DNA of 64,000 nt from an uncultured bacterium (GCA_963732385.1 CAVSZB010000001.1:31890-95889); one strand, 5' to 3'. Positions 11,828 to 45,907 are shown, counted from the first letter of the stretch. Notes: a model not told the origin generated them from the letters alone. Numbers and translations are program-made.

Positions 11828-12424
11828 GTGATGAAATGGCTGCTGGTCGGCGTCCTGCTGCTCGCGGCCCAAGCCGTCTCTGCCCAGCCTTGCGATCCGC
11901 AGTCCAACGGCATCGGCATCTACTTCGACCAGCAGGGCTGCGACTACTGCGCGATGCCGGCCCCTTACACAACGGTTACCGGCTACGTCTTGGCTACGAA
12001 CGTGGATCCGAGCCTGGGCGGCATCTCCGGCTTCGAATTCAAGCTGTTGTGCGATCCGCTTCCACCAGCGCTTCTCGTCACCGTCCCGGGATATGTGATC
12101 CTGGACGACACGTTCCCGTTTTATCGGGTGCCACTGTGCGCGGAAAGTGCGCCGGCCATCAAGCTCGCGACCATCAGCATGCTGTGGATCGGCATCACCC
12201 CGATCCGGTTCGGTCTTGGTCCTCATGTGCCGTCCTCCGGCGATGGCACCAGCCCAATGATCGCCGCCGGAAACGACCCGACCCTGTTTGTTCCCCTGCG
12301 TTACTTCAGCCAGAACGTCCCCTGGCCGGGCGAGAACTACGGCTACACGGTGGCCTGGGTCGGCAACTGCCCGGTCGCCGTCGCGGATGCGAGTTGGGGG
12401 GGGATCAAGAGTCTCTTCCGGTGA
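11828..12424 (+). CDS. Secreted hypothetical protein with C-terminal SWGGIKSLFR tail
   Basis: Signal peptide, GAGGAGG RBS, IGIYFD beta-rich domain. Confidence 0.8.
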   Translation: MMKWLLVGVLLLAAQAVSAQPCDPQSNGIGIYFDQQGCDYCAMPAPYTTVTGYVLATNVDPSLGGISGFEFKLLCDPLPPALLVTVPGYVILDDTFPFYRVPLCAESAPAIKLATISMLWIGITPIRFGLGPHVPSSGDGTSPMIAAGNDPTLFVPLRYFSQNVPWPGENYGYTVAWVGNCPVAVADASWGGIKSLFR

Positions 12425-15222: not shown

Positions 15223-17319
15223 CTACTTCGTCAACGCGATCTTCGCGAACTCCAGCAGCCCGGCGCCCGTGGCGCGCACCAGGTAGACGCTGCTCGCCAC
15301 GCTCCGGCCGTCGTCGCCGCGGCCGTCCCAGGTTACGCGCTGCGGGCCGGCCTCGCGGCGGCCGCTGAGCAGCGTGCGCACGTGCTGGCCGCGCAGGTCG
15401 AAGATCTCCACGGCGATCTCCCCGGCCGACGGCAGGGTGAAGGCGATCGTGGTGGCCGGATTGAACGGGTTGGGCGCGACGCGCAGGCCAAGGCCGGGGG
15501 CCGCCGGCGTTTCGTCGTCGACAGGGGTCAGGTCGTCCGCCAGCAGCCACATCGTCGCATTCAGGAAGAACTCGCGGTTGTTGCTGCCGGCCTCGGTCCA
15601 GTTGTTGACGTGCGGATCGCTGTCGGTGCCGTCGGCCGTGCTGGAGGAGTCGCCGTAGCCCATCACCTTGCCCGCGCCGTAGCGCGACCAGGCGGCGATG
15701 TTCACGTCGGGATTGCCGGTGTCGCCGTCCTTCCAGATGTGGCCGCCCACGCCGGTCAGGTACGGGTTTGCGGTCGGCCAGAGCGACATCACGTTGCCCA
15801 CGTGGTAGATCGTGGCGCTGACGTGCCCGTATTCGCCGTTGATGACCGGGTTGGCAGGGTTCGTGTCGACGTTGGAGAAGGTCCCAGTGATGGCGTTGTT
15901 CCCCTCGTCCTTCACGTGGAAGTGCAGGCCGAACAGCGCGCCGCAGAAGGTCTCCACGTCGGCGCCAACCGGCACCGAGATGTGCGGGATAGAGTAGCCG
16001 CCGAAGATGCTCGGCGAATCCCAGCCGTCGCTGTCACGGTCGCTGCCATTGTGGTTGGCCACGACGAAAAGCGAGCCGCCGTTGTACACGAAGGTCCCCA
16101 CCGCGGCGATCTCCGCCGCCGTGAACGGGTTCTGCGGCTCCACGATCACCAGCAGGTCGACCCCCGCCAGCACCGACGCGTCGAGCGGCGCGTTGCTGCT
16201 CTTGAGCGTGTGGCCCCGCAGGTAGAGCTCGTAGCCCCAGCTCGACAGCTGCCCGCTCCAGTCGGCCTCGCTCGTCGGGTTGGCCGGAAGTGGCAGCGGC
16301 GCGTTGTCGTCGATGCGCCAGTTTCCCTCGGTGCCGGCGTCCTGGCCGTGCGCGTGGTCGAACAGGACGACCTTTGCCGGTCCGGTCGTTCCCTGCACCC
16401 AGACGCTGTACACGCTCGTGGGGGCGTTGGCCGGGTCGCGCGTCTGCGCCGCCTCGTCGTCTTCGGCCAGGAGGTAGAACTCCAGCGTCGCGTTGCCGGT
16501 GAGCGGGTAGACGACGCCGCGCCAGCCGCTGCCGCCGGTGGCGGTCATGGCCTGCGCGGTGTACGTGCCGGCGCCGAAGCGCCAGTACATCTGCACCGAG
16601 GCCACCGTGCCGTCGCTGTCGGTGACACTGGTCGTCACGACGACGCTGTCGGTGAGCGTCGGCGCGGCCGGCGTGAAGGCAGTGCCGCTGATGACCGGCG
16701 CCAGGTTCGTCGTCCCGCCGCCGGCGACGTCGTAGTACAGCTCGACGAACTCATAGTAGTAGGCGTTGGTGCCGACCGTGGAGTCGTTCACCTCGCTGAT
16801 GACGACGCCGCTGGCGGTGCCGTCGGCCGCCTCGACGCCGGAGCCGGGCGTGGGGGCGCTGTCGATCGACGTCCAGGGCGCCGCCTCGGGATCGTCGCGG
16901 TGGAACGCCAGCGCCGGCGTGGTCGCTGGCAGCGCCGGGGTCGGACCGTCCTCGCTGACGCTTGCCGCGTTGACCAGCTCGAAGGTCTCCGCGCCGTTGA
17001 TCTGCGGCACGCCGGTCGCCGAGGCGGCGTGCGTCCGGTAGGTGACGTTCGATCCGAGCGTCACGCCGTAGTAGGCCTCGAACTGCCCCTGCGTGGCGTA
17101 GCGCGCCAGGATCAGGTAGCCGCCCGGCTGGATCAGGGTGCCGGCCGGGAAGGTCTCGGTCTGGGTCGAGTTCAGCTGTCGCAGCTGCCAGCCGCCGATG
17201 TCGATGGCGGTCTGGGCGGAGAGCGGCAGGCCGGCGGTCAGAACGGCGAGGGCGGCGCAGGCAGCCACGGAGGCAGCGCGGGCGCGCACCGACAGGCAGG
17301 CGGAAACGCAGTGCTTCAT
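15223..17319 (-). CDS. Secreted multidomain protein: lamin-tail-like + Ig-like + DUF4350/GATase-like + C-terminal FlgD-Ig domain
   Basis: Signal peptide; IGGWQL..FPAGTLIQPGGYLIL; VLFDHAHGQDAG; PNPFNPATTIAF..IFDLRGQHVRTL..WDGR. Confidence 0.82.
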   Translation of the reverse strand: MKHCVSACLSVRARAASVAACAALAVLTAGLPLSAQTAIDIGGWQLRQLNSTQTETFPAGTLIQPGGYLILARYATQGQFEAYYGVTLGSNVTYRTHAASATGVPQINGAETFELVNAASVSEDGPTPALPATTPALAFHRDDPEAAPWTSIDSAPTPGSGVEAADGTASGVVISEVNDSTVGTNAYYYEFVELYYDVAGGGTTNLAPVISGTAFTPAAPTLTDSVVVTTSVTDSDGTVASVQMYWRFGAGTYTAQAMTATGGSGWRGVVYPLTGNATLEFYLLAEDDEAAQTRDPANAPTSVYSVWVQGTTGPAKVVLFDHAHGQDAGTEGNWRIDDNAPLPLPANPTSEADWSGQLSSWGYELYLRGHTLKSSNAPLDASVLAGVDLLVIVEPQNPFTAAEIAAVGTFVYNGGSLFVVANHNGSDRDSDGWDSPSIFGGYSIPHISVPVGADVETFCGALFGLHFHVKDEGNNAITGTFSNVDTNPANPVINGEYGHVSATIYHVGNVMSLWPTANPYLTGVGGHIWKDGDTGNPDVNIAAWSRYGAGKVMGYGDSSSTADGTDSDPHVNNWTEAGSNNREFFLNATMWLLADDLTPVDDETPAAPGLGLRVAPNPFNPATTIAFTLPSAGEIAVEIFDLRGQHVRTLLSGRREAGPQRVTWDGRGDDGRSVASSVYLVRATGAGLLEFAKIALTK

Positions 17320-44662: not shown

Positions 44663-45907
44663 ATGCGACGGCGTGTTGTGCGGGCGTTTATCGTGCTGCT
44701 GTGGATCGTGCCGGGGTCGCTCGTGGGGCTGGCGCCACGCGCCTCGGCCCAGATCGCGGTGAACCGGGTGGCGGGGGGGCTGGCCTGGCCGGTCTGGGTG
44801 ACGGCGCCGCCGGCGGATGCGCAGCGGCTGTTCATCGTGCAACAGGGGGGTCTGGTCCGGATCCTGAAAGGCGGCGCGTTGGTGGCGGCGCCGTTTCTCG
44901 ACATCACCACCCTGGTCAGCCAAGGGTCGGAGCGGGGGCTGCTGGGACTGGCGTTCGATCCGCAGTACGCGACCAACGGGCGCTTCTTCATCGACTACAC
45001 GGACGTGGCGGGGAACACGGTGATCGCGCGGTACACCGTCTCGGCGGGCGATCCGGACCTGGCCGACCCCGGCAGCGCCGTGCTGCTGCTCGCTATCGAC
45101 CAGCCGTTCGCGAATCACAATGGCGGCACGGTCGCCTTCAGTCCGCGGGACGGCTATCTGTACATCGGCATGGGGGACGGTGGCTCGGCCGGCGATCCCG
45201 GCGACCGGGCGCAGGATACCGGCACCCTGCTTGGCAAGCTGCTGCGGCTGGACGTGAGCGGCGCCACCTATACCATCCCGCCCGACAATCCGTTTGCGGC
45301 GCCCGGAGGGGCGCGCGAAGAGATCTGGGCGACCGGGCTGCGCAATCCCTACCGCTTCGGCTTCGACCCGCTCAACGGCGACATCTACATCGGCGATGTC
45401 GGTCAGAACGAGTGGGAGGAGATCGACTGGCAGCCGGGCGATGCGCCGGGCGGACGCAACTTCGGCTGGCGCCGGATGGAGGGGTCCCACTGCTACGACC
45501 CGGTCAATGGCTGCAACGACGGCTCGCTCATCCTGCCGGTGCACGAGTACAGTCACGCGGGAGGCTGCTCGGTGACGGGTGGCGCGGTATACCGCGGCAG
45601 CGCCATGCCGGCCCTGCAGGGGACCTATTTCTTTGCTGACTATTGCACTGCCCGCCTCCGGTCGTTCAAGATGCTCGGCGGAGCGGTGGCGGAGTTCCGC
45701 GAGTGGCCGCTGTCGGTCGTGCCGGGCGCGGGGATCGCCACGGTCGGGGCCATCGTCGCCATCGCGGCCGACGGCGTCGGCGAACTGTACCTCGTCGATC
45801 GCACCGGGACGCAGGAGGGCGAGATCTGGAAAATCGTACCGGAGGGGACCCAGGCGACGGAGCAGCGCACTCTGGGCGGTGTGAAAGGGCTCTACCGCGG
45901 CCGCTGA
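44663..45907 (+). CDS. Secreted PQQ-dependent sugar dehydrogenase (GSDH beta-propeller) family protein
   Basis: ERGLLGLAFDP, NHNGG, GDGGS, GLRNPYR, GDVGQN..EEID. Confidence 0.9.
   Translation: MRRRVVRAFIVLLWIVPGSLVGLAPRASAQIAVNRVAGGLAWPVWVTAPPADAQRLFIVQQGGLVRILKGGALVAAPFLDITTLVSQGSERGLLGLAFDPQYATNGRFFIDYTDVAGNTVIARYTVSAGDPDLADPGSAVLLLAIDQPFANHNGGTVAFSPRDGYLYIGMGDGGSAGDPGDRAQDTGTLLGKLLRLDVSGATYTIPPDNPFAAPGGAREEIWATGLRNPYRFGFDPLNGDIYIGDVGQNEWEEIDWQPGDAPGGRNFGWRRMEGSHCYDPVNGCNDGSLILPVHEYSHAGGCSVTGGAVYRGSAMPALQGTYFFADYCTARLRSFKMLGGAVAEFREWPLSVVPGAGIATVGAIVAIAADGVGELYLVDRTGTQEGEIWKIVPEGTQATEQRTLGGVKGLYRGR

Follow-up and report, generated by a model that had tools for sequence, protein, structure and literature searches.

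The DNA analysed here, referred to as the window, is a stretch of 64,000 nucleotides from an uncultured bacterium (GCA_963732385.1, CAVSZB010000001.1:31890-95889). Two of its genes encode unrelated proteins that end in the same short C-terminal peptide, which we call the tail. One product is an exported protein of 198 amino acids (aa) that belongs to no recognised family, the other is a 414-aa glucose/sorbosone dehydrogenase (GSDH) of the pyrroloquinoline quinone (PQQ) type. The tail is a genuine, abundant and uncatalogued C-terminal tag found at the end of thousands of exported proteins in several phyla of uncultured bacteria, and we propose that it may act as an address or anchor in the cell envelope. 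The coordinates of both genes are listed in Table 1, together with a neighbouring gene whose product ends in a C-terminal domain (CTD) of a type IX secretion system (T9SS).

A preliminary description of the window had proposed that both proteins end in a common motif, and the two open reading frames (ORFs) bear this out. The C-terminus of GSDH reads TQATEQRTLGGVKGLYRGR directly before the stop codon, and a longer stretch of this end reads EQRTLGGVKGLYRGR. Both N-termini resemble Sec signal peptides, with a basic start and a hydrophobic core, followed by VSA/Q in the 198-aa protein and ASA/Q in GSDH. Here and throughout, signal peptides were judged by eye and with a hydropathy score. The 198-aa protein had no match in Pfam or NCBIfam. 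When signal peptides and tails were removed, BLASTP found no similarity between the 198-aa protein and GSDH. The tail module is kept in orthologues of the 198-aa protein at 65-68% identity. This family has 130 representatives in a library of 1.84 billion proteins, and 112 of the 130 (about 200 aa) end in the tail. Close orthologues of GSDH share the L-G of the window protein, and orthologues at about 57-64% identity carry S/T-W-G. Because the first position of the motif tolerates F and L, the GSDH tail is, judged by its sequence, a diverged but genuine copy. The preliminary motif had allowed W or L at this position. Both residues are real, but the consensus is wider (W, F or L) and the L belongs to the diverged GSDH form.

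Table 1. Genes and features of the window, with the evidence for each.
Feature	Position	Strand	Basis
Gene, 198-aa exported protein of no recognised family, tail carrier	11828..12424	+	ORF; ends PVAVADASWGGIKSLFR-stop
Putative Sec signal peptide of the 198-aa protein, residues 1-19, MMKWLLVGVLLLAAQAVSA/Q	11828..11884	+	By eye and hydropathy score
Extended tail module C181-R198, CPVAVADASWGGIKSLFR	12368..12421	+	Logo of 126 distinct tails; orthologues
Core tail S189-R198, SWGGIKSLFR; stop directly after at 12422-12424	12392..12421	+	ORF and six-frame motif scan
Gene, 414-aa PQQ-type GSDH with diverged tail	44663..45907	+	ORF; PF07995, E 1.2e-36
Putative Sec signal peptide of GSDH, residues 1-29, ...LAPRASA/Q	44663..44749	+	By eye and hydropathy score
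Diverged GSDH tail T403-R414, TLGGVKGLYRGR; L replaces W, two extra residues (GR)	45869..45904	+	ORF and motif scan
Gene, 698-aa protein with lamin-tail domain and T9SS type A / FlgD-Ig CTD (about 15226-15480)	15223..17319	-	Context only

The position of the tail was analysed in the whole genome, which comprises 9 contigs and 3.82 Mb with a G+C content of 0.67-0.70. A search of all six frames for [WLFYM]-G-x-[IVL]-K-x-x-[FY]-[RK] gave 13 matches. Eleven of these abut a stop codon, one lies 1 residue and one 2 residues before it, so that all 13 fall within 0-2 residues of the stop and the tail is strictly terminal, as had been expected of a sorting signal. In the 23,952 stop-to-stop frames that are 80 aa or longer, the shorter pattern WGx[IVLM]K was terminal 12 times and internal 6 times. 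When the second position was relaxed to G/S/T, 20 ORFs were obtained. One more (...NSWGTFKSLYR) was found among neighbour genes, which brings the total to 21. In three sets of proteins (382 retrieved proteins, 470 metagenome ORFs and the proteome), 282 matches were terminal and 3 were non-terminal, the latter lying 6-10 residues from the end. One further ORF of the genome (G000:C7:1545885-1546144) has a perfect tail, ...RTSWGAIKGLY, lacking the R and the stop; another 22 Gly-rich residues (GPRGGGAGPVTGASGTTGKIRR) follow until the stop. This ORF may be a read-through or stop-loss variant.

The carriers of the tail are unrelated to one another. Twenty tail ORFs of the genome were clustered by BLASTP and fell into 15 groups. 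A signal-peptide-like N-terminus is present in 19 of the 21 tail ORFs, and the two others are short and fragment-like (101 and 62 aa). The claim that the tail sits on unrelated proteins with signal peptides, made for two proteins of the window, thus extends to the genome. The tail ORFs without signal peptide (G000:C7:868702-869328 and G000:C8:440823-442162) resemble C-terminal pieces of frame-split genes, and the piece upstream of the former opens with a signal peptide, MKKLLVLALILVSASAFAQ. GSDH, lamin-tail and Temptin_C/CxxCH are among the folds of the carriers; in 13 further carriers that were scanned, lamin-tail and Temptin_C/CxxCH were the only recognised domains. Proteins with the tail are small: their median length is 224 aa (n=21), compared with 882 aa for CTD proteins (n=39, picked by regular expression). 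The cysteine content of the tail carriers is 2.3%, somewhat above the 1.3% of the proteome. CxxCH haem-binding motifs occur in two small tail proteins (G000:C5:312679-313050 and G000:C4:222857-223309), one of which matches Temptin_C (E 3.9e-13). These two proteins and the PQQ dehydrogenase suggest that some of the tail cargo consists of redox proteins.

A scan of one genome per prokaryotic species with the tail pattern revealed at least 132 loci. A true stop ends 130 of those, and the 126 distinct tails were combined in a sequence logo. Among the positions that the pattern did not fix, counted from the W, the upstream part showed [ST] at -1 (92%), [VT] at -7 (76%), P at -6 (52%) and [VT] at -5 (68%). 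E or R was found at -4, and Cys at -9, -10 or -11 summed to 50%. Downstream, [AS] at +5 reached 73% and L or M at +6 reached 72%. The conserved unit therefore spans about 18 residues, C-P-[VT]-P-[VT]-E-x-x-[ST]-[W/F]-[G/S]-x-[VIL]-K-x-[LM]-[YF]-R-end, with the core reading W-G-x-[IV]-K-[AS]-[LM]-Y-R in the logo, and conservation extends about 8 residues upstream of this core. The preliminary description had compared the linker before the tail to the PV that precedes the FlgD-Ig domain of the 698-aa protein. This comparison proved uninformative: the conserved stalk is C-P-[VT]-P-[VT]-E, and in the sets examined no tail motif precedes a CTD.

The tail is conserved at the protein level. Of 120 lamin-tail homologues, reaching down to 45% identity, 108 match the broad motif, 10 have variants of it, 1 is degenerate and 1 has no tail; internal matches were absent. 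At the first position, 71 of the 108 matching proteins have W, 32 have F, 4 have L and 1 has M. The last residue is R in most families, usually as a single R, with RR, RGR or RRR in some GSDH forms. Since the codons vary at every conserved residue of the tail, selection acts on the peptide and not on the DNA.

Structure models were calculated with AlphaFold2. For a lamin-tail carrier (74 homologues) the mean pLDDT, the local confidence of the model, was 89, and the tail was modelled as a helix at residues 207-214 with a pLDDT of 74-85 for this block. The model of the 198-aa protein (mean pLDDT 55.7, alignment of 6 sequences) has residues 158-198 below 50 and contains a helix at 190-195, likewise below 50. 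The ten-residue end is probably a two-turn helix capped by Ser/Thr.

A terminal helix in two unrelated carriers would also fit a self-sufficient anchor. Here a short interfacial helix with Trp, Ile/Val, Leu, Tyr, Lys and Arg would stick to the membrane or to lipopolysaccharide without any machinery, as do the C-terminal helices of MinD and PBP5. The aromatic and basic composition is typical of interfacial peptides, the neighbourhoods examined contained no reader gene, and the PQQ dehydrogenase and the two CxxCH cargo proteins could gain from membrane tethering. However, the amphipathicity of the tail does not stand out clearly from chance. The helical hydrophobic moment of the 126 tails is 0.45, compared with 0.36 +/- 0.17 in shuffled sequences, and 29% of the shuffles reach the observed mean. 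In addition, the near-invariant W/F, G/S, K and Y/F across phyla and the P-V-P-V-E stalk, conserved over about 8 upstream residues, are more than a mere lipid-binding helix would need. We consider a self-sufficient anchor unlikely, if the most serious of the alternatives.

The distribution of the tail was analysed with DNA patterns that include the stop codon. The strict pattern was found in 37 of 41 related genomes, and the reversed pattern in 0 of 41. The relaxed pattern matched 205 of the 208 genomes of the phylum, up to 72 times in a genome; the reversed pattern gave 0-2 per strand. One family (f5) had seemed to lack the tail, with 0 matches to the strict W-G form in 3 complete genomes. 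The relaxed pattern revealed a W-S variant there, with 10, 9 and 2 matches, and this absence was rejected. Named records among the matches listed were mostly 'Candidatus Eisenbacteria' and 'Krumholzibacteriia/-ota', with some labelled Fibrobacteraceae, Latescibacteria and Effluviviaceae. Whole-genome counts in four metagenome-assembled genomes (MAGs), including ones with these last three labels, gave 35, 25, 48 and 64 tails. A MAG labelled Zixibacteria had 1 match compared with 2 in the control, and this phylum was not counted as a carrier. The organism of the window probably belongs to Krumholzibacteriota, since the closest named lamin-tail homologue (81% identity) is labelled so, as are the nearest Atlas clusters. 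The statement in the preliminary description that the tail is common in candidate phyla of the Fibrobacteres-Chlorobi-Bacteroidetes type agrees with the counts, both in the phylum and in MAGs of other labels. The phyla that carry the tail are not known to have a cultured representative. With only 3 of 208 genomes free of matches, phylogenetic profiling within the phylum offers no contrast.

In homologous proteins the position of the tail is taken by other modules. Among the best 120 GSDH homologues, classed by regular expressions, we found 20 tails, 51 T9SS CTDs, 9 IPTL-CTERM, 20 dockerin-like ends and 20 others. The end modules of all classes attach right after the catalytic domain. In a FastTree phylogeny of the catalytic domain alone, the 20 tail forms and 3 CTD forms make up one loose group (support 84), which sits inside a group of 65 rows, 41 of them CTD forms. 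On this tree 2 changes account for the tail label, and 1 is also possible. The 198-aa family contains four long proteins (660-4491 aa) in which the domain is N-terminal and the end is CTD-like. In a metagenome cluster, tail-less homologues stop at Cys-Pro, exactly where the tail begins in others. The tail motif was absent from the linkers before CTDs in the sets examined (this genome, the 382 retrieved proteins and the 470 metagenome ORFs). The tail is an alternative to the CTD and not a prefix of it.

The preliminary description had placed the tail alongside a T9SS-like CTD system, and such a system was indeed found. SprA (C4:162482-166537) scores 451.6 bits, which is over the cut-off. A PorU-like gene reaches 416.8 bits against a cut-off of 420; it is a 1609-aa frame with its own CTD, and the next gene, directly adjacent, is PorV-like (342 aa; 93 bits, below the cut-off), the pair lying at G000:C7:221135-227058. 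The genome has 73-92 CTD matches. One of the CTD proteins is the 698-aa neighbour in the window, with 37.8 bits for PF13860 (cut-off 27) and 18.9 bits for TIGR04183, under the cut-off of 23; the tail motif is not present in it. The genome thus encodes the T9SS core, which serves as context here and is no evidence that the tail is a CTD. As T9SS also occurs in nearly every relative, its co-occurrence with the tail cannot discriminate between explanations.

The type A CTD (TIGR04183/PF18962, with FlgD_ig PF13860 in these phyla) occupies the same position as the tail in GSDH and 198-aa homologues and occurs in the same genomes. The last four residues are alike, small-L-hydrophobic-K/R in the CTD and [AS]-[LM]-[YF]-R in the tail. 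The tail might on these grounds be a minimal T9SS signal, which engages the translocon or a PorV shuttle without the 80-residue Ig-like domain and serves small cargo. SprA, the PorU-like gene, the adjacent PorV-like gene and the CTD matches would supply the machinery, the tail forms of GSDH nest among CTD forms, and the size difference between tail and CTD proteins would fit as well. Against this, the CTD folds into a beta-sandwich of 70-100 residues, whereas the tail has 10-18 residues and is modelled as a helix where the CTD ends in a beta-strand. The T9SS signals known so far require the greater part of the folded domain, and PorU cuts the CTD off. The likeness is confined to four positions. 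CTD models matched neither of the two tail proteins of the window, and 12 of the 21 tail segments gave no match to them even at E values up to 10. Nearly all genomes of the phylum have both features. A predicted complex of the PorV-like protein and the C-terminal 40 residues of the 198-aa protein scored 0.01 against a mark of 0.32, which speaks neither for nor against this explanation. A minimal T9SS signal appears rather improbable to us, more so than the self-sufficient anchor.

The C-terminal signal of outer-membrane beta-barrels was likewise considered. It has an aromatic last residue and belongs to a barrel. The tail ends in R or another polar residue, and its cargo are GSDH (PF07995), lamin-tail, small beta-sandwich or CxxCH proteins.

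The tail was further compared with tripartite sorting signals, whose standard design is defined in the available text of the preprint by Haft (10.1101/2023.06.07.544157). Such signals (LPXTG/sortase, PEP-CTERM/exosortase, PGF-CTERM/archaeosortase, GlyGly-CTERM/rhombosortase and MYXO-CTERM/myxosortase) are presented in that text as a short C-terminal signature on many unrelated exported proteins per genome, often dozens (10.1101/2023.06.07.544157). The tail is like them in being a short conserved signature near the C-terminus of many unrelated exported proteins (15 groups in one genome). It is unlike them in having no membrane segment and no Arg-rich cluster at the extreme end, which is usually a single R. 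The proteome contains 53 C-terminal ends with a transmembrane segment plus basic residues, none of which has the full tail motif. The best hits in the genome for PF18203 (14.9 bits), PF07589 (18.6 bits) and NF038039 (15 bits) are all below the cut-off, and none lies at a tail. IPTL-CTERM, PEP-CTERM and WGxxGxxG-CTERM are therefore without a hit over the cut-off in this genome. A search for exosortase found none over the cut-off in the genome (best PF09721 hit 19.8 bits versus 25.7; other sortase families were not searched). A 743-aa protein of the genome (G000:C8:82756-84987) ends in IAWGGIIVWPLLVGLASAIMVVRRRRAG; its A-W-G-G-I-I starts into a membrane helix and an Arg cluster, an IPTL-like design that scores below the model cut-off.

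WGxxGxxG-CTERM (NF038039) is described in the same available text as a broadly distributed orphan that resembles tripartite signals and has no known enzyme (10.1101/2023.06.07.544157). As far as this description goes, it has in common with the tail that both are C-terminal, start with W-G, are broadly spread and lack a known enzyme. NF038039 does not find the tail in the genome, its best hit (15 bits, cut-off 24) being at an unrelated place. No curated model of Pfam or NCBIfam matches the tail. The motif strings were not found in the literature searched, which excluded about 1.7 million PubMed Central articles and supplements. This literature likewise held no link of Eisenbacteria with C-terminal sorting or of Krumholzibacteriota with type IX secretion. 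Within these models and this literature, the tail is thus not an annotated family.

The closest resemblance was to IPTL-CTERM (PF18203/TIGR04174), which like the tail is C-terminal on exported, otherwise unrelated proteins. The two have a common core, [VI]-P-[TV]-x-[ST]-x-W-G-x-[IV]. IPTL forms of GSDH read ...[VI]PTLS[EQ]WGMII, followed by a membrane helix and RRR. Their W-G lies 10-11 residues past the end of the GSDH domain in 9 of 9 cases, and the same distance is found in 17 of 20 tail forms. Eight independent IPTL-CTERM ends of the same phylum resemble one another, and a matrix of the 7 residues before the W was built from them. The median score was -3.07 for the residues upstream of the tails, compared with -7.03 for random internal W-G (n=1109) and -7.08 for C-terminal position controls (n=2962), with a Mann-Whitney p of 9e-21 that overstates the difference because the tails are interrelated. 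The best register was shifted by one residue, with the proline further from the W, in 85 of the 126 tails. As far as the residues before and at the W-G tell, the likeness is real but partial. Beyond the W the two differ, in that IPTL-CTERM goes on with a transmembrane helix (about 17 residues) and a cluster of Arg, while the tail ends 8 residues after the W, the K and R included. PF18203 matches none of the tails. IPTL-CTERM was found in 10 of the 208 genomes of the phylum and in 0 of 90 in the family of the window. In one genome an IPTL-CTERM gene (L262:1405-2030; G207:C9) is directly followed by a 129-aa gene ending in STWGKIKSLYFSN, so that the two signal types stand side by side. We know of no enzyme that processes IPTL-CTERM. 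In the literature searched, IPTL-CTERM occurred in one paper, which only mentions it, as an InterPro match on an S-layer protein.

Given this partial signature, the tail could be a functionless remnant of a tripartite, IPTL-like signal that lost its membrane helix and was spread by the expansion of paralogues. Many carriers are in fact tandem paralogues. A remnant would be expected to decay, yet the tail is kept on 15 groups of proteins, in 205 of 208 genomes and in several phyla, with synonymous codon variation. We strongly disfavour this explanation and regard it as the least probable of all.

The reading that we favour has, in our judgement, an even chance of being right. It holds that Sec-exported proteins carry in the tail a peptide-sized C-terminal tag for the envelope, an address or an anchor, which a dedicated protein reads. 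The module consists of a proline-rich stalk, often with Cys as its first residue (C-P-[VT]-P-[VT]-E-x-x), and the ten-residue end [ST]-[W/F/L]-[G/S]-x-[V/I/L]-K-x-[L/M]-[Y/F]-R-COOH. The cargo would be exported by the Sec system. A dedicated protein of the cell envelope would then bind the exposed tail, and would either hold the cargo at the envelope or cell surface or pass it on. The tail may be retained or cleaved in the process. For small cargo it would do what the T9SS CTD, IPTL-CTERM or dockerin does in orthologues. The earlier proposal of an export or surface-attachment signal gains from the fact that homologues hold exactly these modules at the same position, although the localising role itself is something we infer.

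Several points weigh against an envelope address. The signal peptides on which the export of the carriers depends were judged by eye and hydropathy score only. Exchange of modules means a common position and not a common function. No recurrent non-cargo neighbour was found within +/-4 genes of 20 regex-matched tail genes (146 neighbours), no reader was found among 470 clustered ORFs from 124 metagenome loci, and 3-kb windows around 8 IPTL-CTERM genes contained no shared enzyme. The matrix scores of the tails for IPTL-CTERM are negative, and on the GSDH tree the IPTL forms fall into the other half and are not neighbours of the tail forms. Moreover, E, Q, K, D or H also occur as the last residue in the 198-aa family, so that the tail is less like tripartite signals with their basic end. 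An ABC ATPase with a 533-aa polytopic membrane protein, recurrent in 3 related loci, was considered as a reader. The pair has no BLASTP homologue in this genome and was rejected.

Rather than a location, the tail might specify turnover, maturation or quality control, as a tag recognised by a protease or chaperone of the periplasm. Terminal peptides are what tail-specific and PDZ-type proteases recognise, and the position of the tail is strictly terminal. Such enzymes favour non-polar ends, however, and the tail ends in R or another polar residue. A degradation tag would also be odd on about 20-70 proteins per genome and through divergence to 45% identity, and the modules with which the tail exchanges are anchoring modules and not degrons. 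A tag of this kind therefore seems very unlikely to us, though not as remote as the functionless remnant.

C-terminal sorting signals decide which proteins are displayed on the bacterial surface. Those described are either folded domains, such as the T9SS CTD, or have a membrane helix in a tripartite design, and the tail has neither. About 20-70 exported proteins in each genome bear it, throughout a candidate phylum and in MAGs with the labels of other phyla. If the tail serves as an address label, it would point to an envelope machine that has yet to be described, and it would provide a simple annotation rule by which thousands of 'hypothetical' proteins could be flagged as envelope or surface proteins. 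It would also be a short portable tag for protein display. The likeness to IPTL-CTERM links two orphan signals. More tentatively, and with less confidence than for the address tag as such, the tail may represent a new envelope pathway for sorting or anchoring. This would be the first with a peptide-sized C-terminal label without a membrane segment and with a dedicated envelope reader. It would serve tens of small exported proteins in each cell of Krumholzibacteriota, Eisenbacteria and allied phyla, and the tail would be an evolutionary cousin of IPTL-CTERM. If this is true, the reader of the tail might also solve IPTL-CTERM. New in the present analysis are the module swap, the extended stalk with its cysteine, the W/F/L variants, the likeness to IPTL-CTERM and the negative results for a reader.

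Some further observations concern the tail genes and the two proteins of the window. Tail genes are often arranged in tandem arrays of small paralogues. Eight tails lie within 8 kb at G212:C1:3010563-3018486 (the MAG behind L048), and paired tails 0.5-1 kb apart were seen on many metagenome contigs (L137, L140, L142, L146, L155, L172, L176, L200 and L202). Two tail genes of the genome (G000:C5:403398-404108 and G000:C6:433-1143) are 100% identical, and the C6 copy lies at the contig end; they are probably a repeat that broke the assembly. The core of the 198-aa protein had a type II cohesin as its best Foldseek match, which is weak (E 6.8e-4, TM 0.31-0.42). In an Atlas cluster at 0.87, the Cohesin family is found on 16% of the members. 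This cohesin-like lead, weak as it is, would fit a possible surface assembly of the cohesin-dockerin type in these phyla, as it stands beside about 20 GSDH homologues (within P0044-P0115) with dockerin-like ends.

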